Assembly (NCBI RefSeq): GCF_050971785.1
Contig: NZ_JBPCCU010000012.1
Span: forward strand, 58,049 to 122,048
Length of the DNA: 64,000 bases
DNA from: Actinomadura scrupuli
GTDB lineage: Bacteria > Actinomycetota > Actinomycetes > Streptosporangiales > Streptosporangiaceae
Direction: 5' to 3'
How positions within the stretch are numbered: position 1 is the first letter of the stretch; the number at the start of each line of letters is the position of its first letter. Below are positions 1 through 45,585 of the stretch, piece by piece. Made by a program: the position numbers and the translations under genes. A model generated the notes under the pieces. The model saw only the letters and a list, made by a program, of their open reading frames with translations. It was not told the origin of the DNA and did no database searches.

Positions 1-33
1 GCAGCGACCTCATGGTATTCCCAGGAATCCCTA

Positions 34-1446: not shown

Positions 1447-1608
1447 TCCCGGATACCCACCGCTCGACTCGATGAAGTGTCCACCTGAAGCGGGGCCGGC
1501 GCCTCGGGGTGCGGTGGCGCACAGGGACACGGCCGATCGGCTGCTGCCCGGGCCGCGGTTCCGCCGCCATGCGCTGTGGCGCTACACGCGGACCAAGCGC
1601 TGAGGCGA

Positions 1609-2226: not shown

Positions 2227-2443
2227 GAACGTACTGATCTCTCCCGACAGCCGCCAGTGCCCGGTCGTGAAGATCCAGAACCCCCGGGACGCCGGGAGCG
2301 GTTCAGCACGGGTCCGATCCGCCAGGGGTGGCGCAGCCGCACGTCACCATATAGTTTTGTAATGCAACTCACTCTGGTAGGGGGCGGGCGGCGCCGTATC
2401 ACCGACGAGTGACCGAGGTCGCTCGGGGAGCCGGGAGATCCGA

Positions 2444-4747: not shown

Positions 4748-4769
4748 GCCGGGTCCGTACGCGGGCTCC

Positions 4770-5288
4770 TCACCCGGTGGCCGACCGGGCGGTGCGGGCC
4801 GGCGAGAGCCGCTGGTAGCCGAGGGCGGCGAGACCGAACGCCAGGCCCCCGATCACGAAGAGCACGTCGGTCGCGCCGCCGGCGAACAACGCCCAGGCCG
4901 ACGGATGCCCGGTCCCCATGACCTGTGCGGTCGTCAGCCCGGTGAGCCCCCGGGGCAGGATCCCGGTGGCGCGGCCCAGGCTGTCGGCCACGCCGATGAG
5001 CCCGCGTCCGCCGAGGAGCACGCACCCCGCCCACGCGGCGGAGACGAGCATCCAGCGCGGAATCCGGCGGCCCCACGGCCGGGCGAGGGCCACCGGCACC
5101 AGGATCCCGACGACGACCATGGTGAGGACGACCGCCGTGGACAGCTCCGCGAGGACACGCTCGGTCCCCTGGTGATCCGACGGCGTGGGGAACTCCAGGC
5201 CGGTGACGGCCCAGACGACATGCCAGGCGAGAAAGACCATCACCCACGTGAACGCCGCGTAGGCGGTCCTTCGGTTGACGCGCATACG
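4770..5288 (-). CDS. hypothetical integral membrane protein
   Basis: Start taken at MRVNRR. About four predicted hydrophobic helices. The ORF extends to 5396 with an Arg/Gly-rich, probably non-coding N-terminal extension. Confidence 0.45.
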   Translation of the reverse strand, partial: RMRVNRRTAYAAFTWVMVFLAWHVVWAVTGLEFPTPSDHQGTERVLAELSTAVVLTMVVVGILVPVALARPWGRRIPRWMLVSAAWAGCVLLGGRGLIGVADSLGRATGILPRGLTGLTTAQVMGTGHPSAWALFAGGATDVLFVIGGLAFGLAALGYQRLSPARTARSATG

Positions 5289-11637: not shown

Positions 11638-11933
11638 TGAGCACCTCTCCCCAGGTTCAGCCGAAGAGCACCACCGCGTTCTTCGTACAGGCGGTCATCT
11701 CGTTCGCCATCTCCAGCTTCGCCGTCGCCATCGGCGTCATCTACCTCCCGGTCAACGTCTGGGTGCGGGCCTTCCTCGCCCTGGGTCTCCTCTACGTCAT
11801 CACCTCAACGTTCACCCTCGCCAAGTGCGTCCGCGACAAGCAGGAGAGTGACGCGGTCGTCAGCCGGGTCGACAAGGCCCGGCTGGACAAGCTGCTCGCC
11901 GAGCACGACCCCTTCCGGGTGGAGGGCATCTGA
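11638..11933 (+). CDS. YiaA/B two-helix domain membrane protein
   Basis: 98 aa from ATG 11638 (MSTSPQVQPKSTTAFFVQAVISFAISSFAVAIGVIYLP...LGLLYVITSTFTLAKCVRDKQE). Two TM helices and the YiaAB pattern. Confidence 0.65.
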
Positions 11934-12214
11934 CCAGCAGACCCGGAGACCCAGAGACCCGAGCTACGGTCGCCGGAAAATGCGTCGACGTCTGCGCGCC
12001 CGATCCGTACCATCTGAGCCATGTTCACCGCGGCCGGCATCCTCTCGCTCGCAGAGCTCGCAGCTCTGCCGGGCGCGGTGCCGGCTGCCGTCTCGGCAGC
12101 AGCACCCGCCGGCGGCCTGCGACTCTGACCCTCCTCCGTCCCGCCTTCGAGAACCCACGGAGGAGGGTGGTCGGCATTTCGGTTCTCCCGCAGGAAACGT
12201 AGCGAGGAGACATC

Positions 12215-13396
<1,182 letters not shown>

Positions 13397-13403
13397 GGGC
13401 CGC

Positions 13404-13481
13404 CCCCCACCGGCCCGACAACCTCCGTGATCATGCAATCAACCGACGAACGATTGCATGATCACGGAGGGGTGGGTGGGG
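13404..13481. repeat. palindromic element copy A (19-bp perfect stem, 11-nt loop, flanked by CCCCACC/GGTGGGG outer arms)
   Basis: CCTCCGTGATCATGCAATC (13422-13440), loop AACCGACGAAC, GATTGCATGATCACGGAGG (13452-13470). A near-identical copy lies at 33077-33125. Confidence 0.6.
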
Positions 13482-13663: not shown

Positions 13664-16600
13664 ATGCGGTGGATGTGCGCTGTGATGGCCGCCTTTCTCG
13701 TGATGTGCGGCCCGGTCGCCGCCGCTCGGGCCGGGTTCCCCCAGGGCCCGCCCAACGACCCGTCGTACGCCCCGGCCGAAGCCCCGGGTGAGTGCCGCAA
13801 CGTGCCCGACGGGGAACAGCACAATCTCTACTCGTTCATGCCGCGCTGCACTCCGGGCGCCAGGGACCCGGAGAACGCCTCGGGCATGTCGGTGGACACC
13901 GCCTGGCGCGACTACACCACCGGCTCACCCGACGTGGTGATCGCCTATGTCGAGGGCGGCATCAACTGGCACAACGGCGACGCCGCCGAACTGGCCGACA
14001 AGGTCTATCTCAACACCGGAGAGCTGCCCAGGCCGGCGGGCTCGGCCGGGTACGACCGTGACGGCGACGGGGCGGTCACCGCGGCCGACTACGCCGCCGA
14101 CCCCAAGGTGCGCGACGCCAACGGCAACGGCCGGATCGATCCGGAGGACCTGATCGTCGCGTTCTCCGACGGCACCGACGGCGACCACAACGGGTTCACC
14201 GACGACGTCGCGGGCTGGGACTTCTACGAGGGCCAGAACGACCCGGCCACCTACGACGCGACCTACGGCCACGCCAACGGGCAGATGAAGACGCTGGCGG
14301 CGCAGACCGACAACGGCGTCGGCGGTGCGGGGATCTGCCCCGAGTGCCGGATCCTGCCGATCCGGGCGGGCCAGGAGGCGCTCGACCGCACCGACGACCT
14401 CGCCCAGGCCTGGCTGTACGCGGCGCACATGGGCGCCAAGGTCATCGTCAGCACCACCGCGGACCTGGGGTACTCCTCGTACGCGCGCCAGGTCGTGGAG
14501 AAGCTGTGGCACGACGGTGTGGTCATCGTCGAGTCCAGCAACGACTTCGACTCCACCGACCACCAGGGCGGCATGTACTGGCCGCATGTGATCCCCGGCA
14601 ACGGGGTCGTCGCCAACACGGTCGGCGTGCCCGCGCCGCTGGCCAACACGCTGACCACGACCTTCCGGACCCGGTCCGACCTGACCTCGTACGGCGCGAA
14701 GGCGATGTTCTCGGTGGCCACGACCGGCGGCTCCACCTCCGAGTCGACCCCCACGACCGGCGGCGTCTTCGGGCTGCTGATGTCGTACGGCCTGAAGACC
14801 GGCCCGGGGACGGGCCTGAAGACCGGCGGACCGCTGACCAACGCCGAGGCCGTACAGGTGCTGCGCGCCACCGCGAGCGACATCGACGACCCGTCGCTGC
14901 CCTGGCCGGGCAAGCCGGGCTGGGACCGACAGTACGGCTACGGACGACCCAACGTCACCAAGGCGCTGCGGGCGATCTCGCGGGGCGACGTGCCGCCGGT
15001 CGGCTGGATCTCCAGCCCCGACTGGTACGCCCTGTACGACCCGACCCGTACCTCCTCGGTCGAGGTCACCGGGCATGTCGCCGCGCCGCGCTCGCCCGGC
15101 TACCGCTACGAGCTCCAGTGGGCACCGGGCATCGAGCCCGCCGACTCCGACTTCCGCACGGGCGGCTCGGGCACCGGCACCTCGGCGTACGACGGCCGGA
15201 TCGGCACGCTGGACCTGACGAAGGTGCCGCGCTCGGTGTGGGCCGCGCAGTACACCCAGTCGAAGGACAAGGCGCTGTCGGCCAGCGAGCAGTACACCGT
15301 GACGCTGCGGCTGCGAGTCTGGGACAAGGCCGGGCGCATGGGCGAGGAGCGCCGCGCCATCGCCGTCCACCACGACCCGTCGTGGCGGGCGGGCTTCCCG
15401 ATCAGGACGGGGACCAGCGGAGAGAGCCAGCCGGCGCTGGCCGACCTGCAGGGCACCGGCCGGCAGGCGCTGGTCTACGGCGACGCGGACGGACGGGTGC
15501 ACGCCCGTGACGCGGTGAGCGGCGCGGAGCTGCCGGGCTGGCCGGTGACCACCCGGCCGACCGTTCCCCAGCGCGCCTACCCCGGCATCGACCCCGGTCA
15601 CGAGCCGGTGCTGGCGCCGGTGGCGATCGGCGACCTCACCCACCAGGGCAGGCTCGCGGTGGTCGTCACCAGCACGACGGGCCGCACCTACGCCTTCGAC
15701 GCCGGCGGCAAGGCACTGTCCGGCTGGCCGAAGACGCTCGACACCGGCGTGACGAGACCACCGATCCCCCGGCCCGCGCTCGACTACACCCGGCTGCCCG
15801 CCCGGGGCGCGACCGCCGCTCCGGTGCTCGTCGACCTCGACGGCGACCACCGGCTCGACGTGGTCCAGGCGGGCTGGGACGGACGCCTGCACGCCTGGCG
15901 GCCGGACGGGTCGGACCTGCCCGGCTGGCCGGTCAAGGTGAGCATCGACGCGGCGCCGGCCGCCGGGTATGTGAAGATCAACGACCAGAAGCTGGACGCC
16001 ACCCCCGCGGTGGCGGACCTGGACGGCGACGGCAAGCCGGAGATCGTCGTCCGCTCGCAGTACTCCGAGAGCAAGGGCGGCGGGGAACAGTTCTACGGCG
16101 CCAACCACGCCTTCGCCTACCACGCCGACGGCAGCCCCGTCGCGGGCTGGCCGGTGCGCATGTCGTCGATCATGACGTTCTACGGCAGTGCCCAGGAGTT
16201 CGTCACCGAGGCGGTCAACCAGCCGGTGGTGGCCGATGTGGACGGCGACGGCAAGGACGAGGTGGCCACCGGTCCGTCGTTCGCGCCGACCTACCTCATC
16301 TCCGGTACCGGCAGGATCCTCAAGAACTACGGGCCGCTGGAGAACCCGGCGGCCGGCCTGTCACCGAAGGCCGTCCTCAACGGCAACCTGCCGGTGGACA
16401 TCCCGGCGTCCTTCACCACCACCGGCGCCTTCGGGCGCTTCGGGCTGTTCGGGCGGCTGGGCTACACCGAGGCGGGCTCGGGCGGCGTCTCGCTGGCGGC
16501 CGCCCTGCTCTTCCCCGGCAGCGGGGTCGGGGTCGGCAACTACGAGCGCGGCTACGACGCGGCCACCTCGCTGCCCGTGCCGGGATTCCCGAAGGCGCGG

Positions 16601-17176
16601 ACCGGCCTGGGCTTCCTCGGCGCGCCGGTGGTCGCCGACGTCACCGGCGACGGAAAGGCCGAGGTCATCGACGGCGGGGACACCTCCACCCTGCACGCCT
16701 TCTCCCCCGGCGGCTCCGCCACCGGCACCACGGTGCACTTCACCGGCGGCTGGACGATCTGGTCCCCCACGACCGGCGACCTCGACGCGGACGGCAGGAC
16801 CGACCTGGTGACCATGACCCGGGAGGGCTATCTGTTCGCGTGGTCCACCCCGGGCACGGCGGCGTCCAACACCGAATGGTGGACCTACCACCACGACGAG
16901 TGGCGCACCGGGCGCTACGGGCTGGACACCCGCCCGCCCGGCGTCCTGCGCCGTCCGGCCCGCCAGGGGACGGCGCTGACCTTCACCGCCCCGGGTGACG
17001 ACTGGTACGCCGGCCGGGTCACCTCCTACCTGGTGACGGCCGGCGGCCGTACGACCACCGTCCCCGCCACCGTCCCCGCCGGCTCCGTCCAGACCCTGCC
17101 GGTGCCCGCCGGAGCCGTGACCGTGCAGGCCGTCGACGACGGCGGCAACCTGAGCCCGGCCCTGGCGGTGCCCTGA
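13664..17176 (+). CDS. secreted S8 (subtilisin)-like peptidase domain protein with C-terminal FG-GAP/VCBS-type repeats
   Basis: 1170 aa with signal peptide MRWMCAVMAAFLVMCGPVAAARA. S8-like His region (YGHANGQM...GVGGAGICPECRILPIRAG) and Ser region (GGSTSESTPTTGG). More than 6 FG-GAP-like Ca-binding repeats (ADLDGDGKPEIV, VDLDGDHRLDVV, VADVDGDGKDEVATG, TGDLDADGRTDLV). Confidence 0.55.
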   Translation: MRWMCAVMAAFLVMCGPVAAARAGFPQGPPNDPSYAPAEAPGECRNVPDGEQHNLYSFMPRCTPGARDPENASGMSVDTAWRDYTTGSPDVVIAYVEGGINWHNGDAAELADKVYLNTGELPRPAGSAGYDRDGDGAVTAADYAADPKVRDANGNGRIDPEDLIVAFSDGTDGDHNGFTDDVAGWDFYEGQNDPATYDATYGHANGQMKTLAAQTDNGVGGAGICPECRILPIRAGQEALDRTDDLAQAWLYAAHMGAKVIVSTTADLGYSSYARQVVEKLWHDGVVIVESSNDFDSTDHQGGMYWPHVIPGNGVVANTVGVPAPLANTLTTTFRTRSDLTSYGAKAMFSVATTGGSTSESTPTTGGVFGLLMSYGLKTGPGTGLKTGGPLTNAEAVQVLRATASDIDDPSLPWPGKPGWDRQYGYGRPNVTKALRAISRGDVPPVGWISSPDWYALYDPTRTSSVEVTGHVAAPRSPGYRYELQWAPGIEPADSDFRTGGSGTGTSAYDGRIGTLDLTKVPRSVWAAQYTQSKDKALSASEQYTVTLRLRVWDKAGRMGEERRAIAVHHDPSWRAGFPIRTGTSGESQPALADLQGTGRQALVYGDADGRVHARDAVSGAELPGWPVTTRPTVPQRAYPGIDPGHEPVLAPVAIGDLTHQGRLAVVVTSTTGRTYAFDAGGKALSGWPKTLDTGVTRPPIPRPALDYTRLPARGATAAPVLVDLDGDHRLDVVQAGWDGRLHAWRPDGSDLPGWPVKVSIDAAPAAGYVKINDQKLDATPAVADLDGDGKPEIVVRSQYSESKGGGEQFYGANHAFAYHADGSPVAGWPVRMSSIMTFYGSAQEFVTEAVNQPVVADVDGDGKDEVATGPSFAPTYLISGTGRILKNYGPLENPAAGLSPKAVLNGNLPVDIPASFTTTGAFGRFGLFGRLGYTEAGSGGVSLAAALLFPGSGVGVGNYERGYDAATSLPVPGFPKARTGLGFLGAPVVADVTGDGKAEVIDGGDTSTLHAFSPGGSATGTTVHFTGGWTIWSPTTGDLDADGRTDLVTMTREGYLFAWSTPGTAASNTEWWTYHHDEWRTGRYGLDTRPPGVLRRPARQGTALTFTAPGDDWYAGRVTSYLVTAGGRTTTVPATVPAGSVQTLPVPAGAVTVQAVDDGGNLSPALAVP

Positions 17177-19863: not shown

Positions 19864-21117
19864 TCACCCGATCCTGGCCGCGACGACGCCCACGTCGCGC
19901 AACATGTTCTCGGCGGTCGGCCCCGACCGGCGGGTCTCGCGGCGGCGCCGCAGCTCCCGCTCGACCAGCTCGCGGTCCAGGTCGAGGAAGGTCAGCGGTT
20001 CGAGCTCGTCCGCGACGGCGTCGGCGAAGAGCCGGTGCAGCGAGTCCTTGATGATGGCCCGGCCACCCAGGCCGGCGATGACGGTGTAGCCGTGCAACTG
20101 GATCCCGGACAGGGCCATCCTGACGTTGGCGGAGACGATCCCGCCGATACCGACGGCCAGCGCCTTCTCCAGCACGACGACCCGCCGCGCATGCCCCAGG
20201 GCCGCGCGCACCTGGTCGAGCGGGAAGGGCCGGAACGACGTGATGCCGACCACGCCGATCCGTGCCCCCTGGTCGCGCATCTCGTCGACGACGTCCTCGA
20301 TCGTGCCGAGCACCGAGCCGAGCGCCACGACGACGGTCTCGGCGTCCTCGGAGCGATACGTGCTGATCAGCCCGCCCGACGACCGGCCGAACGCCTCCGC
20401 GAACGACGCCGCGACCGCCGGGATGAGCTCCAGGGCCTGCATCTGCCGGGCGTGCGCGAGGTAGCGGACCTCGGTGAAGGCCTCCGGCCCTACCATGGCC
20501 CCGATCGAGACGGGGTCGTCCGGGTCCAGGACCTGGCGCGGTACGTACGGCGGCAGGAACGCGTCGACCTGCTCCTGCGACGGCATGTCCACCCGCTCGC
20601 AGGCGTGCGTCAGGATGAAGCCGTCCATGCACACCATCACCGGCAGCGACAGCTCCTCGGCGATCTTGAATGCCTGAATGTGCAGGTCGAGTGCCTCCTG
20701 GTTGGTCTCCGCGTACAACTGGATCCAGCCCGAGTCGCGCTGCGACATGGAGTCGCTGTGGTCGTTCCAGATGTTGATCGGAGCGCCGATCGCCCGGTTG
20801 GCCACTGTCATCACGATGGGCAGCCCGAGCCCGGAGGCGTTGTAGAGCGCCTCCACCATGTAGAGCAGCCCCTGGCTCGCCGTGGCGGTGTAGGTGCGGG
20901 CGCCGGCGGCGGAGGCGCCGATGCCCACGGACATGGCGGCGAACTCCGACTCCACGTTGACGAACTCGCAGGGCGCGAGCTCACCGGACTTCACCAGCCG
21001 GCTGAGCGCCTCCACGATGTGCGTCTGCGGCGAGATGGGGTATGCGCAGATCACCTCGGGGCGGCACAGCGCCACCGCCCTGGCGACGGCACGCGAACCC
21101 TCGGTCTGCTCAAGCAT
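19864..21117 (-). CDS. porA: pyruvate/2-oxoacid:ferredoxin oxidoreductase alpha subunit
   Basis: 417 aa with the PorA pattern (AYPISPQT...VESEFAAMSVGIGASAAGARTYTATASQGLLYM...). Confidence 0.8.
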   Translation of the reverse strand: MLEQTEGSRAVARAVALCRPEVICAYPISPQTHIVEALSRLVKSGELAPCEFVNVESEFAAMSVGIGASAAGARTYTATASQGLLYMVEALYNASGLGLPIVMTVANRAIGAPINIWNDHSDSMSQRDSGWIQLYAETNQEALDLHIQAFKIAEELSLPVMVCMDGFILTHACERVDMPSQEQVDAFLPPYVPRQVLDPDDPVSIGAMVGPEAFTEVRYLAHARQMQALELIPAVAASFAEAFGRSSGGLISTYRSEDAETVVVALGSVLGTIEDVVDEMRDQGARIGVVGITSFRPFPLDQVRAALGHARRVVVLEKALAVGIGGIVSANVRMALSGIQLHGYTVIAGLGGRAIIKDSLHRLFADAVADELEPLTFLDLDRELVERELRRRRETRRSGPTAENMLRDVGVVAARIG

Positions 21118-27464: not shown

Positions 27465-28949
27465 ATGCGGACGCTCGCGGAGCTGGAGGTGGCTTCCACC
27501 GGAGAGCTGGTGGAGCTGGTCCATGCCGCCCTGGGCCGGCTGGCAGAGCGTCCCGCTCCGGACTGCCCGATCACCGCGATGGAGCTGGCCGAGCGGCTGG
27601 CGGCGGGGCTGGATCTGGGTGAGGCCGCGATGGCCGGCATGGTGGCGGTGGCCGACGCGGCGGCAGCACCGGCGGCGCAGCGTTACGCCGGGACCCGTGG
27701 CTGGCTCAAGGTCGCGCTCGGAATGCGCAACGGCCGCGCCGACGAGCGGCTGACGCTGGCCCGGCAGTTACCCCGGCTGCCCCGGGTCACCGAGATGCTC
27801 GCCGCAGAGAAGCTGTCCTTCGGCCATGCGGCGACGATCGCCGACGCGGTCGCCCACCTGTCCGATTCCGACTGTGCGAAGGCCGAGGAGTTGTTACTCG
27901 GCATGGTCGCCGAGGGGTTCTCGGCCACCAAGGTCGCCAAGCTCGGCGCACGGATCAAGGACGTGATCGCTGAACGGGACGGCACGGAGGACCCCGGCGA
28001 AGACGCCCGGCGCGGCGATCGCTCCTGGTGGCGGCTGTCGAAGTCGCTGAGCGGCGCCGGAGCGGTCAAGGGCTGGTTCGACCCCGAGTTGCTCGCACTC
28101 GTCAACGACCGGCTCGGCCCGCTGGCGAAGCCCTCGGGTCCCGAGGACGACCGCGATCACGCCCAGCGGATGGCGGACGCGCTGCGCATGATGCTCTCCG
28201 GCGGCGGTTCCAACTGGAACGCCACCCTTGTCATCAAGCTCACCGGGGGCCGTGGTCAGAGCTCCCGCTCCGGCCACGGCTCTGCTGGGGCTCCGGGCGC
28301 CCACTGTGGTGCCGGCCCGGTCGCCCCTCGAACTGCGGCCCCGGACGGCGCTGAGGCCATCGCCCCCGTCTTCGACCTGAGCTCGGGCACCGGTGGCGGA
28401 GAGGCAGCCGGTTTGCCGCGGTGGGCCGCCGGTGCTGACGCGTGCGCCGGTAACGGCGGGGAGCCACCGCTCTCCCGGTCGGCCGGTGCCGTGCCTTGTC
28501 CGAGATGGCCGCTGGAGGACGCGCGAGTGTCGGCACGGCTGGCGGACGGCACGCCGATACGACCTGAGCAGGCCCGGATCATCGCTCTCAACGCTGGCAT
28601 CTCGACATTGATCCTCGGACCGGACGGAATTCCGCTCTACCTCGGGCGCCGGGTGCGGCTCGTGACCTCCGGCCAGCGAATGGCACTGGAGGCGCTGTAC
28701 GAGACCTGTGCCAGTGATGAGTGCGACATCCCGGTGCGGTTCTGCCAGCTCGATCACGTACTCAACTGGGTCGATGGCGGAACAACCGATATCGACCTTT
28801 TAGCCCCGGCATGCGCCTTCCATAACCGGCTGAAATACGCCCATTCCGAGTGGGTGACGGTGACTCGTGACAGGACCGGCCGGTGGCGCTACTCCATCCG
28901 CAGACCCCGTCCCCGCTGGGCAGGACGCGACCGCGCCCGTGGTCCGTGA
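27465..28949 (+). CDS. DUF222 (13E12-repeat type) protein with C-terminal HNH endonuclease domain
   Basis: 494 aa with a C-terminal HNH signature (CASDECDIPVRFCQLDHVLNWVDGGTTDIDLLAPACAFHNRLKYA). Confidence 0.7.
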   Translation: MRTLAELEVASTGELVELVHAALGRLAERPAPDCPITAMELAERLAAGLDLGEAAMAGMVAVADAAAAPAAQRYAGTRGWLKVALGMRNGRADERLTLARQLPRLPRVTEMLAAEKLSFGHAATIADAVAHLSDSDCAKAEELLLGMVAEGFSATKVAKLGARIKDVIAERDGTEDPGEDARRGDRSWWRLSKSLSGAGAVKGWFDPELLALVNDRLGPLAKPSGPEDDRDHAQRMADALRMMLSGGGSNWNATLVIKLTGGRGQSSRSGHGSAGAPGAHCGAGPVAPRTAAPDGAEAIAPVFDLSSGTGGGEAAGLPRWAAGADACAGNGGEPPLSRSAGAVPCPRWPLEDARVSARLADGTPIRPEQARIIALNAGISTLILGPDGIPLYLGRRVRLVTSGQRMALEALYETCASDECDIPVRFCQLDHVLNWVDGGTTDIDLLAPACAFHNRLKYAHSEWVTVTRDRTGRWRYSIRRPRPRWAGRDRARGP

Positions 28950-29945: not shown

Positions 29946-30243
29946 TCGAAGGCACGTACCGGTGTCGTACCGCCCGACCCGGGACCCGGCGATGAACCCA
30001 GTGGTGAACGGACGACCTGCCGCCGAACAACGGCGTTGAAAGGCGCCGGCCGTCCCCGCTGCCGGCGGAAGTCACACCATGAGCAACGGTGCGCCACCCC
30101 GTGGAACCGACGCCGTTCGGCTTTCGCTGCTAGGACGGAACCAGGATCCGATCCCCTTGTTCTAAGGGAGATATAGGAGAGTAGTATCCAATTTCGGCCT
30201 CACGGGGAGACCCGGGCCGATACGGGGAGGGCTGTACGGGGCG

Positions 30244-30930
30244 ATGCACGAGTTCCTCCATACCGCACTCGGCTTTCCGGCCGTGATCTTCAGTTTCCTC
30301 CTCATCGTGGTCATCGGGTACTGGCTGCTCGTCCTGCTCGGGGGCACCGATCTCGACGCCGACGGAGACCCCGGCACCGGGCTGCTGGCGGGGCTGGGGC
30401 TGGGCGGTGTTCCGTTCATCGTCGCGTTCTCACCGCTGATCGCCCTGGCGTGGTTCCTGAGCCTGGTCGGCGGCGTGCTCATCGACCGGCGGCTCCTGGG
30501 CAACGCGCTGCTCGAACACTTCGGATCGGCCGCGGACGTACGCACCGGGCTGTCCGTCGCGGTGCTCGTGGTGGCCACGATCGTCGCCTGGCTGGCCACC
30601 CGTCAGCTGGTACGGCCGCTGCGCTACATGATGCCGGACGAGAAGCAGCCCTCCCGCAACGACTTCATCGGCCGCATGTGCGTGATCCGGACCGGGCGGG
30701 TCGACCTGAACTTCGGCCAGGCCGAGGTCCGGGCGGCGGATGGCTCGACGGCCGTGATCCAGGTCCGGCAGATGGCCCCCTCCGCCGAGAAGGACGGGAA
30801 CCAGATCGCCGGTTCTCCTCTCAAATCAGGCAGTACGGCTCTGATCTTTGAATATGACGCCGACGGCCGATTCTTCTGGGTGACGCCGTACGACGCCGAA
30901 CTCGACCCCGACCGCCGTCCGACCCCCTGA
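30244..30930 (+). CDS. NfeD/YqiJ-like membrane protein (flotillin-associated, C-terminal OB-fold)
   Basis: 228 aa with N-terminal TM helices and a C-terminal beta-rich segment (CVIRTGRVDLNFGQAEVRAADGSTAVIQVR). Immediately upstream of the flotillin gene. Confidence 0.6.
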   Translation: MHEFLHTALGFPAVIFSFLLIVVIGYWLLVLLGGTDLDADGDPGTGLLAGLGLGGVPFIVAFSPLIALAWFLSLVGGVLIDRRLLGNALLEHFGSAADVRTGLSVAVLVVATIVAWLATRQLVRPLRYMMPDEKQPSRNDFIGRMCVIRTGRVDLNFGQAEVRAADGSTAVIQVRQMAPSAEKDGNQIAGSPLKSGSTALIFEYDADGRFFWVTPYDAELDPDRRPTP

Positions 30931-30962
30931 TCAATGTTTGCCCACAGACAGAGAGACCTTTG

Positions 30963-33038
30963 ATGGATGCCATCACCACCGGGATCGGTGTACTCCTCGC
31001 CGTCGTGCTGCTCATCGTTCTGGGCACGTTCTTCACCCTCACCCGGCTCTTCCGCAAGGTCGAGCAGGGCAAGGTCCTGATCGTCTCCAAGATCAAGAAG
31101 GTGGACGTCACCTTCACCGGGGCGATCGTGCTGCCGGTGCTGCACAAGGCCGAGGTGATGGACATCTCGGTGAAGACCATCGAGATCCACCGGACCGGCA
31201 AAGAGGGTCTGATCTGCCAGGACAACATTCGCGCCGACATCCGCATCACGTTCTTCGTCCGGGTCAACAAGACCGTCGAGGACGTGATCCAGGTGGCGCA
31301 GGCCATCGGCACCGACCGGGCCAGCCACGAGGACACGCTGCAGGTGCTGTTCGCCGCCAAGTTCGCCGAGGCCCTCAAGACCGTGGGCAAGCAGCTCGAC
31401 TTCGTCGACCTCTACACCCACCGGCACGAGTTCCGTGACCGGATCATCCAGATCATCGGCACCGACCTCAACGGTTACCACCTCGAGGACGCCGCCATCG
31501 ACTTCCTCGAGCAGACCCCGCTGTCGAGCCTGGACCCGTCCAACATCCTCGACGCGCAGGGCATCCGCAAGATCACTGAGCTGACGGCGATCGAGCACGT
31601 CCGCACCAACGAGTTCCAGCGGACCGAGGAGAAGGAGATCACCCGCCAGAACGTCGACGCGCGGGAGGCCATCCTCGAACTGGAACGCCGGCAGGCCGAC
31701 GCCGAGAACAAGAAGAAGCGCGAGATCGAGACCGTACGGGCCCGCGAGGAGGCGGAGATCGCCCGGGTCCAGGCGGAGGAGCGGCTCAAGTCGCAGACCG
31801 CGCACATCAAGACCGATGAGCAGCTCGGCATCCAGACCGAGAACCGCAACCGTGAGATCGCCGTCGCGGAGAAGAACAAGGAACGCGTCATCGCCGTCGA
31901 GACCGAGCGGATCGAGAAGGACCGCATGCTCGAGGTGATCGCCCGCGAGCGGGAGACCCAGCTGGCGAGCATCTCCAAGGACAAGGAGGTCGAGGGCGAG
32001 AAGCGGTCGATCGCCGAGGTGATCCGCGAGCGCATCGCGGTGGAGAAGACGGTCGCCGAGCAGGAGGAGAGCATCAAGCGCCTGCGGACGGTCGAAGAGG
32101 CCGAGCGGATGCGCCAGTCCATCGTGATCCAGGCCGAGGCCGAGGCACAGGAGCACCTGGTCAAGGACATCAAGGCAGCCGAGGCGGCCGAGGAGGCGGC
32201 CAAGTTCAAGGCCCGCGAGTCGCTGCTGCTGGCGGAGGCGCGTCAGCAGACCGCCGAGCTCGACACCCAGGCCAAGCTGCGGCTGGCCGAGGGCGTGCAG
32301 GCCGAGGCGGCCGCCGCCGGGCTGGCCGACGTGCAGGTACGCGAGCGCAACGCCGACGCCGTCGAGAAGCTCGGCCGGGCCGAGGCCGTCGTGAACCGGG
32401 AGAAGGGGCTGGCCTCCGCCGAGGCCACGGAGAAGGTCGGCCGCGCCGAGGCCATCGTCAGCCGGGAGATGGCGCTCGCGGGCGCCGACGCGCTGCGCGA
32501 GAAGCTGAAGGGCGAGGCCGAGGGCCTCACCGCGAAGGCCGAGGCCATGGCCGCGATGGGCGACGCGACCCGGCTGCACGAGGAGTACCGGCTGCGGCTG
32601 GAGGCCGAGAAGGACATCCGGATGGCCGGCCTCGACACGCAGCGCAAGGTCGCCGAGGCCCAGGCGAACGTGCTGGCCTCCGGACTGGAGAAGGCCGACA
32701 TCGACATCGTCGGCGGCGACACCATGTTCTTCGACCGCGTCGTCGGCGCCATCGGGATGGGCAAGAGCGTCGACGGGTTCATGGAGCACTCCGAGGTCGG
32801 GCAGACGCTGGCCGGGCCGTGGCTGAACGGGTCGCGGAGCTTCCCCGACGACCTGTCGCATCTGCTCGGCGCGGTGAACACCGACGACGTCAAGAACCTG
32901 ACCCTGTCCGCGCTGCTGCTGCAGCGGATCAAGGCGGGCGGCTCCGAGGCGGGCAAGATGCAGGAGCTGCTGGACACGGCCGAGCGCCTGGGCGTCGCCG
33001 ACTCGGCCGTCTCGTCCCTCGCCGTCATCGAGAAGTGA
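30963..33038 (+). CDS. flotillin family protein (SPFH/band-7, YqiK-like)
   Basis: About 691 aa. N-terminal TM, SPFH domain, and a long E/A/R-rich coiled coil (EAEIARVQAEERLK...). ATG at 30963; the lister used TTG at 30960. Confidence 0.85.
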   Translation: MDAITTGIGVLLAVVLLIVLGTFFTLTRLFRKVEQGKVLIVSKIKKVDVTFTGAIVLPVLHKAEVMDISVKTIEIHRTGKEGLICQDNIRADIRITFFVRVNKTVEDVIQVAQAIGTDRASHEDTLQVLFAAKFAEALKTVGKQLDFVDLYTHRHEFRDRIIQIIGTDLNGYHLEDAAIDFLEQTPLSSLDPSNILDAQGIRKITELTAIEHVRTNEFQRTEEKEITRQNVDAREAILELERRQADAENKKKREIETVRAREEAEIARVQAEERLKSQTAHIKTDEQLGIQTENRNREIAVAEKNKERVIAVETERIEKDRMLEVIARERETQLASISKDKEVEGEKRSIAEVIRERIAVEKTVAEQEESIKRLRTVEEAERMRQSIVIQAEAEAQEHLVKDIKAAEAAEEAAKFKARESLLLAEARQQTAELDTQAKLRLAEGVQAEAAAAGLADVQVRERNADAVEKLGRAEAVVNREKGLASAEATEKVGRAEAIVSREMALAGADALREKLKGEAEGLTAKAEAMAAMGDATRLHEEYRLRLEAEKDIRMAGLDTQRKVAEAQANVLASGLEKADIDIVGGDTMFFDRVVGAIGMGKSVDGFMEHSEVGQTLAGPWLNGSRSFPDDLSHLLGAVNTDDVKNLTLSALLLQRIKAGGSEAGKMQELLDTAERLGVADSAVSSLAVIEK

Positions 33039-33076
33039 CCGAGCATTGACCCCCCACCCCCACCACCCCCGTCCAC

Positions 33077-33125
33077 CCTCCGTGATCACGCAATCAATCG
33101 TCGAACGATTGCATGATCACGGAGG
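33077..33125. repeat. palindromic element copy B (18/19-bp stem, palindromic loop centred on TCGA)
   Basis: CCTCCGTGATCACGCAATC, loop AATCGTCGAAC, GATTGCATGATCACGGAGG. Flanked by CCACCCCC/GGGGTGGGG. Homolog of copy A at 13422-13470. Confidence 0.6.
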
Positions 33126-33149
33126 GGTGGGGCTGGACGAGGAGCGCAC

Positions 33150-36100
33150 GTGACGGACACCGCGAAGACCGGAGCCGGAGCCGGTACGGGGGACACCGCG
33201 GCACGCGATGGCGCGACCGGGAGCGGGGCGGGCGGCACCGCGGCACGCAAGGGCGAGACCGCGGCGGGCGGCACCGTGACCGGCGGGAACGGGGCGGCAG
33301 AGAGCCGGGCAGCAGGAAGCGAGACGGCAGGGAGCGGGGCGGCGGAGAGCGAGACGGGCGGGGTGGCCGGCGCCGGGCTGGACGCGGGCACCTACGAGGT
33401 GCTGCGGGCACGGCTGGCGGAGCAGGCCGCCGAGCTGGCCCGCCGGGCCGGGACGCTGAACGCCCGGCGCCTGGAGGTCTTCGGCAGCGCCGAGCTGCGC
33501 CTGATCGGCACCGAGCGGATCCGCACCGAGCACAACTGCGTCCCCCGCGACGTGGTGTCGGTCGGCGGGTTGATGCTGTTCGGCTACAACGTCTTCATCG
33601 GGCTCAAGCCCGAGACCACCGTGGACGACGTGTTCTCCCTGCACCGGTTCAGCAGGGAGGCGGACGCCTTCCGGTTCGAGGACGCCGTCGACGGGGAGCT
33701 GCCGGGGCTGCTGCGCGACGCCCAGTTCCAGCGGGACTTCGCCGAGCTCTACCGCTACTACCAGGACACCCGGCTCCTGCAGCTACGGCGGACCGACGGC
33801 AAGTTGCTGGCCGTCTTCCAGACCGGCCTGCTGGCCGAGGACGCCAAGGTGCTGCGCTGGGCCATCGCCACCGACGGTTCGGTGACGTACCAGGACGCGC
33901 GGGGTGAGGAGGACCATGTCTTCCCGCCGTCGCACGACTTCGTGTGGACCGAGACCACCCGGGACGACCACGTCCTGGGCCGGCACCCGCACATCTCGAT
34001 CGAGGACGAGCTGTTCGTCGAGACGATCGGCGGCGACCTCACCATCAAGGTGGAGAACAACACCGAGACCGGTGAGGGCATCTACGCCGAGCCCGTGGCC
34101 GAGCCGCTGCAGAGCCTCGCGGACGCCGAGGTGCAGTACGCCCGGGTCGGCTCGCTCATCCTGCTGCGGATCCTGCCGTACAAGGAGACCGAGCGCCGCC
34201 ACCTGGTGTTCAACACGCGGACCAAGAGCGTCGTCCGGCTGGACGGCATCGGGCAGGCCTGCCAGCGCCTGCCGGAGGACCACGGGATCATCTTCCCCGG
34301 CGGCTACTACCTGGCCACCGGCACGGTGAAGACCTTCGACGCCGACGTGGACAGGCTCGAGTACGAGCAGGTCATCCGTTCCGTCAACGGCGAGGACGTG
34401 CTCTACGTCTTCCATGCCCGGGAGGCCGGGCGGTACCTGCTGCTGCCCTACAACCTGATCCGCAAGGAGATCACCAACCCGATCACCTGCCACGGCTACT
34501 CGCTGTTCGACGACGGCACGATGGTGGCCTTCCGCGCCGACGCCGGGGAGCCCACCCGGGTGCACCCCATGCAGGTGTGGCAGACCCCGTACGTCTCCGG
34601 TGCCCACGCCGCCGCCCAGCCGACCGGCACCGGACCGCTGGAGCGGATCGGCAACGCCGACCTGGTGCGCGGCATCTCCGACGCCCTGTCGGTGACCCGG
34701 ATGGTCGACGAGATGGGCACCCTGAGCACCGCGCATCAGGGCAGGTACTGCGAGTCCCTCATCTCGAGCGCGTCGCGGGTGTTCGACCACTACCACTGGC
34801 TGGGCGAGCGAGACCTCGACGACCTCCGTACGCCGCTGTCGGCGGTGCGGTCCACCGCCGAGCAGATGCTGGACGAGTTCGAGAAGGTCCAGTCGCTCAC
34901 CGCCCAGGCGGCGGCCGCCGTGGACGAGGCCGACGCCCGGATCACCTCGATGATCCGGCTGGCCCGGGCCGAGGCTCCGGCGACCGCCGACGCGTGGGTG
35001 ACCCAGCTGGCCGAGCTGCGCCGCGCCCAGGGCCGCCTGGTGACGCTGCGGGAGCTGCGGTACGCCGACGAGGCCCGGATCGACGCGCTCGCCACCGAGC
35101 TGGGCACGGAGCTGGACGCCGCCGCCCAGCGCGCGATCGCCTTCCTGCGGGGCGAGGACGCCTTCGCCGGTTACCGTGCGGAGGTCGACCGGCTGGTCGC
35201 CGAGGCGGAGGCCATCGGCACCGTCGCCGACGCCACCCCGATCGTGACCAGGCTCACCGAGCAGGCGTCCGGGCTGGAGCTGGTCACCGAGATCGTCGGA
35301 TCGGTGGAGATCGCGGACGCCACCGTGCGCACCGGCATCCTGGAGCGGATCGGCGAGGTGCTCGGCGGCGTCAACCGGGCCCGCGCCATCCTGGACGTCA
35401 GGCGGCGCGAACTGCTCGCGCGGGAGGGCCAGGCCCAGTTCGCGGCCGAGTTCGCCCTGCTCGGGCAGTCCGTCACCGGCGCGCTGGCGCTGGCCGACAC
35501 CCCCGACCACTGCGACGAGCAGCTGGCCCGGCTCATGCTGCAACTGGAGAACCTCGAGACCCGCTTCTTCGACGCCGAGGACCCGCAGGCCGGGGCCGGC
35601 CCCGGCGGCGACCGGCTGGCCGAGCTCACGGCCAAGCGGGAGAGCATCTACGACGCGTTCTCGGCGCGCAAGCAGGCCCTGCTGGATGAGCGGGCGCGCA
35701 AGGCCGACCGGCTGGCCGCCTCCGCGACCCGGATCCTGGCGGGCCTGCAGCGCCGGGTCGCCGGCCTGCGCTCGCTCGACGAGGTCAACACCTACTTCGC
35801 CGCCGACCCGATGGTGGTCAAGCTGCGCGCCGTCGCCGACCAGCTGCGCTCGCTGGGCGACGTGGTCCGGGCCGAGGAGCTCGAAGGGAAGGTCAAGACC
35901 GCCCGCCAGGAGGCCGGCCGGACGCTGCGCGACCAGGTCGATCTCTACGACGACGGCGGCGGGACGATCCGGCTGGGCAGGCACCGTTTCGCGGTCAACA
36001 CCCAGCCCGTCGACCTCACGCTGGTCCCGCACGACGGCCGGATGGCCTTCGCGCTCACCGGCACCGACTACCGCGCGCCGGTCCTCGACGAGGCGTTCGA

Positions 36101-38453
36101 GGCCACCCGGCCGTACTGGGACCAGCTGCTCATCTCCGAGTCCGCCGAGGTCTACCGCGCCGAGCACCTCGCCGCCTCGATCCTCGCCGAAGCCGAGACA
36201 CAGGCCGAAACCCAAGCCGAGACGCAAGCAGACGCCCGCACCGGCACCGGTGAGGCCGCCCCCTCGCTGGACGCGCTGCGCGCGGCCGCGGCCGAGGACG
36301 GCGGCCTGCAGGGCATCGTCCGCCGCGCCGCCGAGGCCCGGTACGACGAGGGATACGAGCGCGGCGTACACGACCATGACGCGGCCGTGATCCTCGCCGT
36401 GCTGCTGCGCCTGCACACCGGCGCGGGGCTGCTGCGCTACCCCCCTGACGCGCGCGCCGCGGCTCAGCTGTTCTGGATGTACGGGACCGACGAGGCGGCC
36501 CGGGCCTCCTGGACCACGCGGGCCGGTTCGCTGGCCCGGGCCCGCTCCGCGTTCGGCCGTTCCAGCACGGTCGACGCCCTGTGCGCCGAGCTCGGCTCCG
36601 ACGTCACCGCCTTCCTCCGCGACTCCGGCCTGCGGCCCGGTGAGCTCGCGGGTCAGGCGGGGCTCGCGGGTCAGGCGGGGCTCGCCGGGGAGTACCTGTT
36701 CGAGGAGCTGGCCGGCGACCGGCCCGGGTTCGTGACCAGTGCCGGAGCCAGGGCCCTGCTCCAGGGGTTCGACCGCGCGCTGGGCGGCCCGCAGGCCGAG
36801 TCCCGCCGGCGGTTCGACGACGACCTGCGGGCGCTCGGCGACGATCTGGCCGCCCGGCACCAGCTGGTCGAGGCCTGGCTCGGCTCCTACCTCGGCTCCT
36901 ACCTCGCCGCGAGCGGCCCCGGGGACGGGAGCGTACGGCCGTCGTCCGCGGACCTGCCCGAGGCGGTGGCGATCGAGCTGTGCGGGGGCGGCCTGCCCCG
37001 GTACGAGTCGCCGGCCACCCTCACCGCCACCGCCGACGGGCTCCTCGGCGTCCATCCGCGTATCGTCCAGCGCCGCCTGGAGCTGCGGATCGACGAGTTG
37101 CTGGCCCGGACCCGGCGGTTCCGGACCGAGCGGGTGCCCGCCTTCCGGGCCTACCAGCGGCAGCGCACCGAGCTCGTCGACCGCGAGCGGCGGCGCCTCG
37201 GCCTCGAGGAGTTCCGGCCGAAGGTCATGAGCGCGTTCGTGCGGAACCGGCTCCTCGACGAGGTGTACCTGCCACTGATCGGCGACAACCTGGCCAAGCA
37301 GCTCGGTGCCGCCGGCACCGCCAAGCGCACCGACCAGATGGGCCTGCTGCTGCTCATCTCCCCGCCCGGCTACGGCAAGACCACTCTGATGGAGTACGTC
37401 GCCAGCCGCCTGGGCCTGGTGCTGGTGAAGGTCAACGGACCGGCGCTCGGCCACGGCGTCACCTCGCTGGACCCCGCGGAGGCACCGAACGCCACGGCCC
37501 GCCAGGAGATCGAGAAGATCTCGTTCGCGCTGGAGATGGGCAACAACGTCCTGCTCTACCTCGACGACATCCAGCACACCTCACCCGAGCTGCTGCAGAA
37601 GTTCATCTCGCTGTGCGACGCCCAGCGCCGGATGGAGGGCGTGTGGGAGGGCCGCACCCGGACCTACGACCTGCGCGGCAAGCGGTTCGCCGTCTGCATG
37701 GCAGGCAACCCCTACACCGAGTCGGGTCATCGCTTCCGCATCCCGGACATGCTCGCCAACCGCGCCGACGTGTGGAACCTCGGCGACGTGCTGTCCGGCA
37801 AGGAGGAGCTGTTCTCGCTGAGCTACGTCGAGAACGCGCTGACCTCCAATCCCGTCCTGGCCCCGCTGTCGACCCGGGAGCGCGGCGACATCGAGCTGCT
37901 GGTCCGGCTGGCCGGGGGCGACCAGACCGTGCGGCCCGACCAGCTCGCGCACCCCTACTCGGCCGTCGAGCTCGACCAGATCTTGGCCGTGCTGCGCAAG
38001 CTGCTGCGGGTCCAGCAGATCGTCCTCGCCACCAACCGCGCCTACATCGCCTCCGCGGCACAGGCGGAGGCGTCCCGGACCGAGCCGCCCTTCCAGCTGC
38101 AGGGCTCCTACCGCAACATGAACAAGCTGGCCGAACGGATCGTCCCGGTGATGAACGACGCCGAGCTCGAAGCCATGATCGACGATCACTATCTGGGCGA
38201 GGCGCAGACCCTCACCTCCGGCGCCGAGGCCAACCTGCTCAAGCTGGCCGAGCTGCGGGGCACGCTGACTCCCGGCCAGGCCGGGCGGTGGGCCGAGGTG
38301 AAGGCCGGTTTCGTCCGGGCGCAGGCCCTCGGCGGTGCGCAGGACGACCCGGTGAGCCGGGCGGTCGGTGCCGTCGGGCTGCTCGCCGACCGGGTCGGGT
38401 CGGTCGAGACCGCCATCACCCGTGCCGCCGGCCGGCTGGCGTCCGACAGATGA
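33150..38453 (+). CDS. very large (1767 aa) hypothetical protein with C-terminal AAA_5 (MoxR/dynein-class) ATPase domain
   Basis: GTG start with RBS GAGGAG. N-terminal G/A/T-rich low-complexity region, a central globular plus long helical region, and a C-terminal AAA+ module at nt 37330-37900 (Walker A ISPPGYGKTTL; Walker B LLYLDDIQH; FAVCMAGNPYTESGHRFRIPDMLANRADVW). Confidence 0.7.
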   Translation: MTDTAKTGAGAGTGDTAARDGATGSGAGGTAARKGETAAGGTVTGGNGAAESRAAGSETAGSGAAESETGGVAGAGLDAGTYEVLRARLAEQAAELARRAGTLNARRLEVFGSAELRLIGTERIRTEHNCVPRDVVSVGGLMLFGYNVFIGLKPETTVDDVFSLHRFSREADAFRFEDAVDGELPGLLRDAQFQRDFAELYRYYQDTRLLQLRRTDGKLLAVFQTGLLAEDAKVLRWAIATDGSVTYQDARGEEDHVFPPSHDFVWTETTRDDHVLGRHPHISIEDELFVETIGGDLTIKVENNTETGEGIYAEPVAEPLQSLADAEVQYARVGSLILLRILPYKETERRHLVFNTRTKSVVRLDGIGQACQRLPEDHGIIFPGGYYLATGTVKTFDADVDRLEYEQVIRSVNGEDVLYVFHAREAGRYLLLPYNLIRKEITNPITCHGYSLFDDGTMVAFRADAGEPTRVHPMQVWQTPYVSGAHAAAQPTGTGPLERIGNADLVRGISDALSVTRMVDEMGTLSTAHQGRYCESLISSASRVFDHYHWLGERDLDDLRTPLSAVRSTAEQMLDEFEKVQSLTAQAAAAVDEADARITSMIRLARAEAPATADAWVTQLAELRRAQGRLVTLRELRYADEARIDALATELGTELDAAAQRAIAFLRGEDAFAGYRAEVDRLVAEAEAIGTVADATPIVTRLTEQASGLELVTEIVGSVEIADATVRTGILERIGEVLGGVNRARAILDVRRRELLAREGQAQFAAEFALLGQSVTGALALADTPDHCDEQLARLMLQLENLETRFFDAEDPQAGAGPGGDRLAELTAKRESIYDAFSARKQALLDERARKADRLAASATRILAGLQRRVAGLRSLDEVNTYFAADPMVVKLRAVADQLRSLGDVVRAEELEGKVKTARQEAGRTLRDQVDLYDDGGGTIRLGRHRFAVNTQPVDLTLVPHDGRMAFALTGTDYRAPVLDEAFEATRPYWDQLLISESAEVYRAEHLAASILAEAETQAETQAETQADARTGTGEAAPSLDALRAAAAEDGGLQGIVRRAAEARYDEGYERGVHDHDAAVILAVLLRLHTGAGLLRYPPDARAAAQLFWMYGTDEAARASWTTRAGSLARARSAFGRSSTVDALCAELGSDVTAFLRDSGLRPGELAGQAGLAGQAGLAGEYLFEELAGDRPGFVTSAGARALLQGFDRALGGPQAESRRRFDDDLRALGDDLAARHQLVEAWLGSYLGSYLAASGPGDGSVRPSSADLPEAVAIELCGGGLPRYESPATLTATADGLLGVHPRIVQRRLELRIDELLARTRRFRTERVPAFRAYQRQRTELVDRERRRLGLEEFRPKVMSAFVRNRLLDEVYLPLIGDNLAKQLGAAGTAKRTDQMGLLLLISPPGYGKTTLMEYVASRLGLVLVKVNGPALGHGVTSLDPAEAPNATARQEIEKISFALEMGNNVLLYLDDIQHTSPELLQKFISLCDAQRRMEGVWEGRTRTYDLRGKRFAVCMAGNPYTESGHRFRIPDMLANRADVWNLGDVLSGKEELFSLSYVENALTSNPVLAPLSTRERGDIELLVRLAGGDQTVRPDQLAHPYSAVELDQILAVLRKLLRVQQIVLATNRAYIASAAQAEASRTEPPFQLQGSYRNMNKLAERIVPVMNDAELEAMIDDHYLGEAQTLTSGAEANLLKLAELRGTLTPGQAGRWAEVKAGFVRAQALGGAQDDPVSRAVGAVGLLADRVGSVETAITRAAGRLASDR

Positions 38454-45502: not shown

Positions 45503-45575
45503 GGTCCCCATCGTCTAGCGGCCTAGGACACCGCCCTTTCAAGGCGGTAGCACGGGTTCGAATCCCGTTGGGGGC
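45503..45575 (+). tRNA. tRNA-Glu (anticodon UUC)
   Basis: Cloverleaf by eye. Acceptor GTCCCCA/TGGGGGC with A73, D-arm TCGTCTAGCGGCCTAGGAC, anticodon stem-loop CCGCC-CTTTCAA-GGCGG (TTC), T-arm GGGTTCGAATCCC. CCA not encoded. Confidence 0.85.
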
Positions 45576-45585
45576 ACGGCTTACG

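Follow-up and report, generated by a model that had tools for sequence, protein, structure and literature searches.

A giant DUF3686-family ATPase gene and its flotillin-like neighbor in Actinomadura scrupuli

In a stretch of 64,000 nucleotides (nt) from Actinomadura scrupuli (contig NZ_JBPCCU010000012.1, positions 58,049 to 122,048; hereafter the window, in whose coordinates positions are given), we analyzed a gene at 33150-38453 that encodes a protein of 1767 amino acids (aa) with an ATPase core near its C-terminus. Together with the two genes preceding it, this gene forms one conserved three-gene unit (30244-38453) encoding a YqiJ/NfeD2-like protein with three transmembrane (TM) segments, a TM-anchored flotillin scaffold, and the soluble ATPase. 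Seen from the ATPase side, the link to flotillin is obligate across many phyla. Judged by its sequence, the gene is a typical copy of a catalogued, uncharacterised family of giant ATPases and does not represent a new kind of system. We favor, with modest confidence, a function of the ATPase as an ATP-driven remodeller of flotillin assemblies and, in some lineages, also of PspA assemblies. A first-pass annotation of this DNA had implied that the family and its flotillin link were unrecognised; the family is in fact named at NCBI, and the operon already appears in Ravi et al. (2024).

Linkage of the ATPase gene to a flotillin-like gene

The linkage was examined from both sides. Starting from the ATPase, a family alignment retrieved 80 genome loci, of which four start at a contig end and 76 retain upstream DNA. 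A flotillin-like homologue (50-81% identity) was encoded immediately upstream on the same strand in 76 out of 76 of these loci, which include Myxococcus, Corallococcus, and Acidobacteriota as well as metagenome-assembled genomes (MAGs) of Clostridia and proteobacteria. A YqiJ-like gene upstream of the flotillin-like gene was detected by tblastn in 62 of the 80 loci. The flotillin stop codon and the ATPase start codon overlap by 4 nt in about 20 loci, which is the usual sign of translational coupling. Moreover, the identities of the flotillin-like protein and of the ATPase to their window copies co-vary (r = 0.92, 118 loci). Starting from flotillin, nine aligned flotillin-like proteins were used to retrieve 80 metagenome loci, 64 of which have at least 700 nt of downstream sequence. 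The ATPase was encoded downstream in 58 of these 64 (55 within 1.5 kb and three slightly differently placed). The suggestion of the first-pass annotation that the proximity to flotillin could be meaningful was thus borne out in both directions.

No other neighbor was conserved across phyla when the open reading frames (ORFs) of six reference loci were compared by tblastn with all 80 loci. The DUF308 and nitronate-monooxygenase genes downstream in the window are not conserved across loci, and 28 loci, mainly from Streptomyces, have the same upstream neighbor in common. None of the ten neighboring ORFs scanned contains a VWA domain, in agreement with the earlier statement that no VWA partner is adjacent. 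In one sub-clade with about 47% identity to the window proteins (L129, 12181-12726, and also L120, L123, L125, L132, L147, and L153), the flotillin and ATPase genes are separated by a gene for a 181-aa protein. This protein carries several CxxC pairs and is Zn-ribbon-like, and its gene starts with a 4-nt overlap with the flotillin stop.

The order proposed initially for the window, with the ATPase gene downstream of an NfeD-flotillin pair and a palindrome in between, was confirmed (Table 1). The spacer RNA is predicted to fold into a strong hairpin (-49.6 kcal/mol, z = -3.4). Since such a hairpin could terminate transcription, the 111-nt spacer is the one feature in favor of regarding the ATPase gene as an orphan that adjoins flotillin by coincidence. 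A near-identical second copy of the palindrome was found at 13422-13470, with four arm matches where 0.06 would be expected by chance. The two copies read CCTCCGTGATCA(C/T)GCAATC...GATTGCATGATCACGGAGG and have C-rich and G-rich outer arms in common. Because of this second copy, and because relatives have overlapping or closely spaced genes, the palindrome looks like a dispersed intergenic repeat of the repetitive extragenic palindromic (REP) type that was inserted at the junction, and not like a feature of the operon. With adjacency in all 76 loci, stop/start overlaps in about 20, and a hairpin that appears to be a dispersed repeat and not a conserved operon boundary, a coincidental neighborhood is hardly credible. 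The hairpin was also considered as an operator or terminator specific to the operon; this was ruled out by the near-identical copy 20 kb away and by relatives without a spacer. Possibly, the REP-like hairpin attenuates read-through and lowers expression of the ATPase relative to flotillin. The second copy lies about where a minus-strand ORF (11792-13438) begins and upstream of a plus-strand ORF (13664-17176).

The two partner genes differ in how firmly they could be assigned. In the 692-aa product of the second gene, a single predicted TM segment at the N-terminus precedes an SPFH domain, which is followed by a long coiled coil rich in E and A and by a C-terminal segment that is conserved. Neither this protein nor nine family members matched Pfam Band_7/Flot, and hidden Markov model (HMM) searches of PDB sequences gave no match to the protein or to the family profile. 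The NCBIfam model FloT matched weakly (E = 4.6e-5), and the Prokaryotic Genome Annotation Pipeline (PGAP) labels the counterpart on plasmid pQBR103 "SPFH domain-containing protein". The profile comparison with E. coli K-12 YqiK (hhalign probability 99.9%, E = 1.2e-31, 420 columns) settled its sequence-based assignment as a flotillin/SPFH protein of the YqiK type. Its ORF was listed from TTG 30960; because homologues begin with "MD", the true start is probably ATG 30963.

The 228-aa product of the first gene is only weakly tied to YqiJ and YuaF. It has no Pfam match of its own. Its family profile matched E. coli YqiJ weakly (hhalign probability 49%, E = 1.7e-4) and the YuaF structure 2k14 weakly as well (E = 0.26), and one family member matched Pfam YqiJ_N (E = 1e-4). 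The three predicted TM segments, the C-terminal beta domain, and the position of the gene fit the NfeD2 pattern described for NfeD2-SPFH2 operons (Hinderhofer et al. 2009, PMC2636767).

Family membership and anatomy of the ATPase

The ORF at 33150-38453 and its T/G/A-rich N-terminus were as first described. Two further statements, that the protein is an orphan and that a large region of it has no recognisable motif, did not stand. A search of 5.8 billion proteins returned more than 5,587 matches to the ATPase. The best 120 homologues, spread over numerous genera of actinomycetes, are all full length (1,600-1,760 aa) with 70-85% identity, and query coverage is 90-98% in most of them; the ATPase homologues of actinomycete genera show 57-75% identity. 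A HMMER search with the non-AAA part alone (aa 95-1290) gave 446 clusters at 50% identity (E ≤ 1e-30), with full-length members reaching down to 28% identity. A second search, starting from one of the most distant members, added proteins of identical Pfam architecture from Bacteroidota (Flavobacterium, Carboxylicivirga, Ferruginibacter) and from a MAG of Lachnospiraceae, and plasmid records added Pseudomonas, Proteus, Vibrio, Halomonas, Deinococcus, and Hymenobacter. The family is found in Actinomycetota, Myxococcota, Acidobacteriota, Bacteroidota, Deinococcota, Gammaproteobacteria, and Clostridia, in hosts whose GC content ranges from 30% to 70%. It had no match among 50,697 phage records and 13 among 72,556 plasmid records, mostly megaplasmids or chromids.

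Some homologues show variations. Non-actinomycete ORFs of 1,838-1,905 aa (L043:9908-15625, L050:9646-15207, and L064:9986-15502) seem to extend up to about 200 aa beyond the C-terminal end of the window protein. In one family member (P0283), ankyrin repeats are fused to the ATPase. At another locus (L083), the operon is flanked by ankyrin-repeat genes (1-5000 and 20532-20866), and a PspA gene lies 6 kb downstream.

Two Pfam families match the region previously thought to be without motifs: (i) PF12458 (DUF3686), with 717.4 bits against a cut-off of 25 (E = 7e-216) at aa 95-549 and profile positions 1-448 of 448; and (ii) PF25472 (DUF7902), with 105.1 bits against a cut-off of 26 (E = 2e-30) at aa 670-754, between the N-terminal domain and the ATPase core. 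The N-terminal region therefore does match an existing family, one that is catalogued but not characterised. No Pfam family was found for the mid-domain or the C-terminal tail at E ≤ 10. Further detail came from two AlphaFold2 models, built on 49-sequence alignments and covering aa 76-960 (predicted local distance difference test, pLDDT, 87.6) and aa 930-1767 (pLDDT 90.4, predicted template modeling score 0.82). In these models, an N-terminal helix (aa ~81-111) is followed by a beta domain of about 28 strands (aa ~117-478) whose similarity to beta-propellers is distant, and then by the rod, the mid-domain, and the core listed in Table 1. The modeled anatomy runs from a propeller-like domain through a rod resembling spectrin and a helical domain to an AAA+ core of the MoxR type. 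It fits the initial idea of a mechano-enzyme or scaffold. No TM segments were predicted in the ATPase, and from its sequence it is taken to be soluble.

The C-terminal AAA_5 assignment of the first-pass annotation was upheld for Walker B, FAVCMAGNP, and the AAA_5 profile; the Walker A motif, previously given as GPPGYGKTT, reads SPPGYGKTT. Scanned alone, the core had AAA_5 as its best and most complete AAA model in Pfam (E = 7e-8, profile positions 2-126 of 139), and the ATPase agrees with both the AAA_5 sequence profile and a MoxR-like core fold. LLYLDDIQH, FAVCMAGNP, and RFRIPDMLANRADVW were located at aa 1468-1542. Invariant residues were read from an alignment of 26 diverse family sequences with identities down to 30%. 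K1410, T1411, D1472, D1473, N1520, R1538, and R1655 are invariant in 26 out of 26; R1655, which belongs to the GSYRNM motif, is a candidate for sensor 2. Of 73 cluster representatives of full length, 72 have kept the SPPGYGKT P-loop. The nucleotide-binding motifs, including the Walker and arginine motifs whose conservation had been put up for checking, are thus under strict conservation in the aligned sequences and not degenerate. Walker B departs from the canonical hhhhDE: D1472-D1473 (37563-37568) read DD throughout the 26 members, in place of the catalytic DE of MoxR and most AAA+ proteins. Conserved positions also occur in the mid-domain. In the motif GVHDxDA (aa 1072-1077, 36363-36380), G1072, H1074, and D1077 are invariant and D1075 is present in at least 90% of the sequences; R1102 is likewise invariant. 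These residues could form a metal or ligand site, or an interface.

At NCBI, the family is named "DNA repair ATPase", and a role in DNA repair has to be weighed against this anatomy. Besides the name, the proposal could draw on sub-threshold matches to the RuvB P-loop (22 bits, where the cut-offs lie at 282-299; in the PDB, some 70 residues with E = 0.003) and on long helical rods that superficially recall SMC and Rad50. The core is, however, of the MoxR clade of AAA+ and not an ABC-type SMC/Rad50 head, the Pfam search found neither a DNA-binding nor a nuclease domain, the conserved neighborhood contains no repair gene, and the invariant partners are membrane proteins. PDB searches with the single ATPase and with the family profile found nothing past the P-loop. 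We regard a DNA-repair function as very improbable; nothing in the present evidence supports the name, which will probably mislead those who interpret genomes.

The start of the ATPase is not certain. Its first 75 residues (21 G, 20 A, and 12 T) appear from sequence comparison to be a lineage-specific extension absent from most homologues, the majority of which align only from query residue ~45-80 onward. The GC content at third codon positions is 0.85 in the first 225 nt and 0.96 in the remainder of the gene, and the GC content of the window is about 70%. GTG 33150, the one start candidate preceded by a Shine-Dalgarno sequence, is kept as the best, with a caveat owing to this lower value and to the position at which homologues begin; the extension may be partly untranslated. 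The alternative starts GTG 33276 and GTG 33363 were rejected, as neither has a Shine-Dalgarno sequence. Likewise, a 1264-aa antisense ORF (33783-37577) was dismissed as a shadow of high GC content, since homology marks the plus strand as coding.

Proposed action of the ATPase

If the ATPase is a remodeller of flotillin assemblies, its AAA+ cores would assemble into an oligomer, probably a hexameric ring like those of CbbQ and NorQ. Arms made up of propeller and rod would reach and bind the flotillin oligomer on the cytoplasmic side of the membrane, at its coiled coil or its C-terminal parts, and flotillin scaffolds would be assembled, disassembled, or turned over by means of ATP binding and hydrolysis. 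PspA/ESCRT-III-like polymers would be acted on in the same way in those lineages in which CesT/YjfI-PspA genes are fused to the unit. The role would be one in membrane maintenance or in the envelope-stress response, comparable to that of Vps4 for ESCRT-III. Since Walker B has an invariant DD and no aromatic pore loop is evident, the ATPase would be a remodeller that works slowly, in the manner of a switch, and neither a fast translocase nor a threading unfoldase. A bolder version, which we put forward only tentatively, is that the family provides the first dedicated ATP-driven (dis)assembly machine for a flotillin scaffold, in which a MoxR ring with propeller-tipped, spectrin-like arms would hold the flotillin cage from the cytoplasmic side and open, close, or recycle it.

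Several observations weigh against the remodelling role. The ATPase is missing in six of the 64 metagenome loci sampled from the flotillin side, and in E. coli no ATPase gene follows yqiK. This flotillin type can therefore function alone, and the flotillin/NfeD-like pair can occasionally stand without the ATPase. Searches by tblastn with Flavobacterium PspA and CesT proteins found neither gene in the window. The DD in Walker B could mean that hydrolysis is weak, and no aromatic pore-loop motif is evident in the ATPase sequence; threading in the manner of Vps4 or ClpB is therefore not supported. Ring formation, contact with flotillin, and ATP-driven action are steps that we infer, and our literature search found no experimental work on any member of the DUF3686 family. 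Literature searches on the Pfam family and on flotillin in combination with either MoxR or the NCBI family name gave nothing relevant either.

An alternative is that the ATPase acts as a client-directed, MoxR-like chaperone that matures, inserts, or extracts another membrane complex, with the flotillin and NfeD-like proteins serving as a platform that concentrates the client. Its closest structural relatives, CbbQ and NorQ, are indeed MoxR chaperones, the large propeller and rod region could bind a client, and the general view of flotillins is that they scaffold other complexes (Ravi et al. 2024, PMC11237479). However, in no phylum was a third conserved partner or a VWA or MIDAS protein encoded nearby; apart from the flotillin-like protein and the YqiJ-like protein, the latter detected less consistently, there is no invariant partner. 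We therefore consider a client chaperone unlikely.

Giant multi-domain NTPases beside membrane proteins are common in defence islands, so the unit might also be an anti-phage or conflict system in which the NTPase senses infection and the flotillin and 3-TM proteins disrupt the membrane. The patchy spread across phyla and GC contents and the lineage-specific additions (Zn-ribbon gene, ankyrin fusions) would suit this idea, as would weak P-loop-level matches to IetA/IteA. Those matches, however, amount to about 30 residues of the P-loop in PADLOC models (IetA and mad8, E = 0.003-0.05), and no nuclease, protease, or toxin domain was found. The family's absence from the phage records and rarity in the plasmid records, its high conservation across actinomycete genera, the upstream neighbor common to 28 loci, and the metabolic genes around the window copy also argue against defence, which we judge improbable. 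Assignments of the ATPase to defence or to RuvB were both discarded, since PADLOC and NCBIfam scans gave matches at the level of the P-loop only.

Should the bolder version given above hold, flotillin domains and, in some phyla, PspA/ESCRT-III polymers would be coupled to energy-dependent membrane repair, and the dynamics of bacterial flotillin would be actively driven and not passive. The role and control of bacterial flotillin assemblies are still debated, and the ATPase family offers a concrete handle on them: it is often translationally coupled to flotillin and, in Bacteroidota and Gammaproteobacteria, lies inside PspA envelope-stress operons.

Surroundings in the window and comparison with known systems

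The features located in the window are compiled in Table 1. A divergent ORF of the glyoxalase family is the upstream gene of the three-gene unit. The 430-nt gap before the YqiJ-like gene contains an AT-richer stretch at 30140-30200 (…ttgttctaagggagatataggagagtagtatccaattt…) that is plausible as a promoter region of the unit; a scan of it for consensus sigma-70 elements found nothing. Two genes upstream of the unit, a 494-aa DUF222-family protein is encoded (27465-28949). In actinomycetes, DUF222 usually occurs in HNH-endonuclease-associated, often repeated genes.

Table 1. Positions of features in the window (aa numbers refer to the ATPase unless stated otherwise).
Feature	Position	Strand	Remarks
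First gene, YqiJ/YuaF (NfeD2)-like membrane protein, 228 aa	30244-30930	+	Three predicted TM segments, C-terminal beta (OB-like) domain
Second gene, flotillin/YqiK-type SPFH protein, 692 aa	30960-33038	+	hhalign against YqiK
Palindromic REP-like element	33076-33126	.	25-nt arms, 88% complementary; in 111-nt flotillin-ATPase spacer
Shine-Dalgarno-like GAGGAG	33139-33144	+	5 nt before GTG 33150, read from sequence
Third gene, giant ATPase ORF	33150-38453	+	GTG start, 1767 aa, DUF3686 + DUF7902 + AAA_5 family
Low-complexity G/A/T-rich N-terminal extension, aa 1-75	33150-33374	+	Composition
Pfam DUF3686 region, aa 95-549	33432-34796	+	Pfam match; holds end of N-terminal helix and beta domain
Helical rod, aa ~496-932, spectrin-repeat-like helical bundles	34635-35945	+	Includes DUF7902 at 35157-35411
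Small beta element and helical mid-domain, aa ~939-1350	35964-37199	+	AlphaFold model, pLDDT 90.4; invariant columns
MoxR/AAA_5-type AAA+ core, aa ~1390-1600	37317-37949	+	AAA_5 profile, alpha/beta fold in model
Walker A SPPGYGKT, aa 1404-1411	37359-37382	+	Motif in AAA+ core
Walker B LLYLDD, aa 1468-1473	37551-37568	+	Motif in AAA+ core
Beta-hairpin preceding sensor 1, aa ~1494-1507			AAA+ core
Sensor 1 N1520 in MAGNP	37698-37712	+	AAA+ core
Arginine-finger candidate R1538	37761-37763	+	Position of MoxR arginine finger
C-terminal helical region, aa ~1601-1767	37950-38450	+	AlphaFold secondary structure; invariant GSYRNM motif
tRNA gene	45504-45576	+	Sole Rfam match in window at gathering threshold

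Compared with the PF12458/PF25472 family as catalogued, the window protein has the same domain order and length as thousands of homologues; only the function implied by the family name is unsupported. Compared with MoxR ATPases (CbbQ, NorQ, RavA) and the AAA_5 modules of dynein and midasin, the window ATPase has DD and not DE in Walker B. Whereas MoxR ATPases are about 300 aa long, the core of the window ATPase is the C-terminal fifth of the whole protein, and unlike the MoxR family it has no VWA/MIDAS partner and partners flotillin and an NfeD-like protein instead. The first two genes of the unit correspond to E. coli yqiJ-yqiK and B. subtilis yuaF-floT, firmly for the flotillin-like gene and by a weak match for the YqiJ-like gene, and in both operons the NfeD-like gene likewise comes first. 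The window's flotillin subfamily has diverged far enough to escape Pfam Band_7/Flot, and its ATPase gene distinguishes the unit from the E. coli pair.

A membrane scaffold is paired with a dedicated AAA+ machine in HflK/C-FtsH, in prohibitin with the m-AAA protease, and in Vps4 with ESCRT-III/PspA. The window unit resembles these SPFH-AAA+ and Vps4-ESCRT-III pairs by analogy, as a putative scaffold combined with an AAA+ protein. Both FtsH and Vps4 belong to the classical AAA clade and have pore loops, and a protease domain is also present in FtsH; the window core, by contrast, is of the MoxR type, with neither a protease nor a MIT domain.

The closest known system is the one described by Ravi et al. 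(2024, mSystems, PMC11237479), who by comparative genomics found operons of CesT/Tir-PspA, a YqiJ/YuaF 3-TM protein, a Band-7/flotillin protein, and a beta-propeller/coiled-coil/AAA+ ATPase, reported that abbreviated operons without PspA are widespread, and assigned the operon to sub-membrane dynamics. Sequence comparison confirmed their ATPase as a DUF3686 family member. Flavobacterium tegetincola has precisely their arrangement: CesT_Tir_1 and PspA_IM30 are followed by genes for 221 aa and 686 aa and then by a 1616-aa DUF3686/DUF7902/AAA protein, and the last three share 21%, 44%, and 39% identity with the three window proteins, for the ATPase over 1,696 aligned positions. On the megaplasmid pQBR103 of Pseudomonas fluorescens (L164, NC_009444.1, 84437-97641), the trio forms the tail of a same-strand gene run in the order YjfI, PspA, rhomboid protease, DUF2491, DUF350, DUF1190, glutathionylspermidine synthase, YqiJ-like, SPFH, and ATPase; this cluster brings together the two classes of PspA operon distinguished by Ravi et al. 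(2024).

The window genes, all on the plus strand, have the same order as the operon of Ravi et al. (2024) and appear to share its three architectures, with a weak match to YqiJ for the first protein and a distant similarity to beta-propellers for the third. Because no CesT/Tir or PspA gene is present in the window, the unit is, on sequence grounds, their "abbreviated operon". The window copy differs from it in the REP-like hairpin at the flotillin/ATPase junction and in the 75-aa low-complexity N-terminal extension. Neither Pfam names nor a structure or mechanism are provided for the ATPase in the text of Ravi et al. (2024). To that one-line mention, the present analysis adds a quantitative linkage test in two directions, a domain-level anatomy with confident models, and an assignment to the MoxR clade with an invariant DD Walker B.

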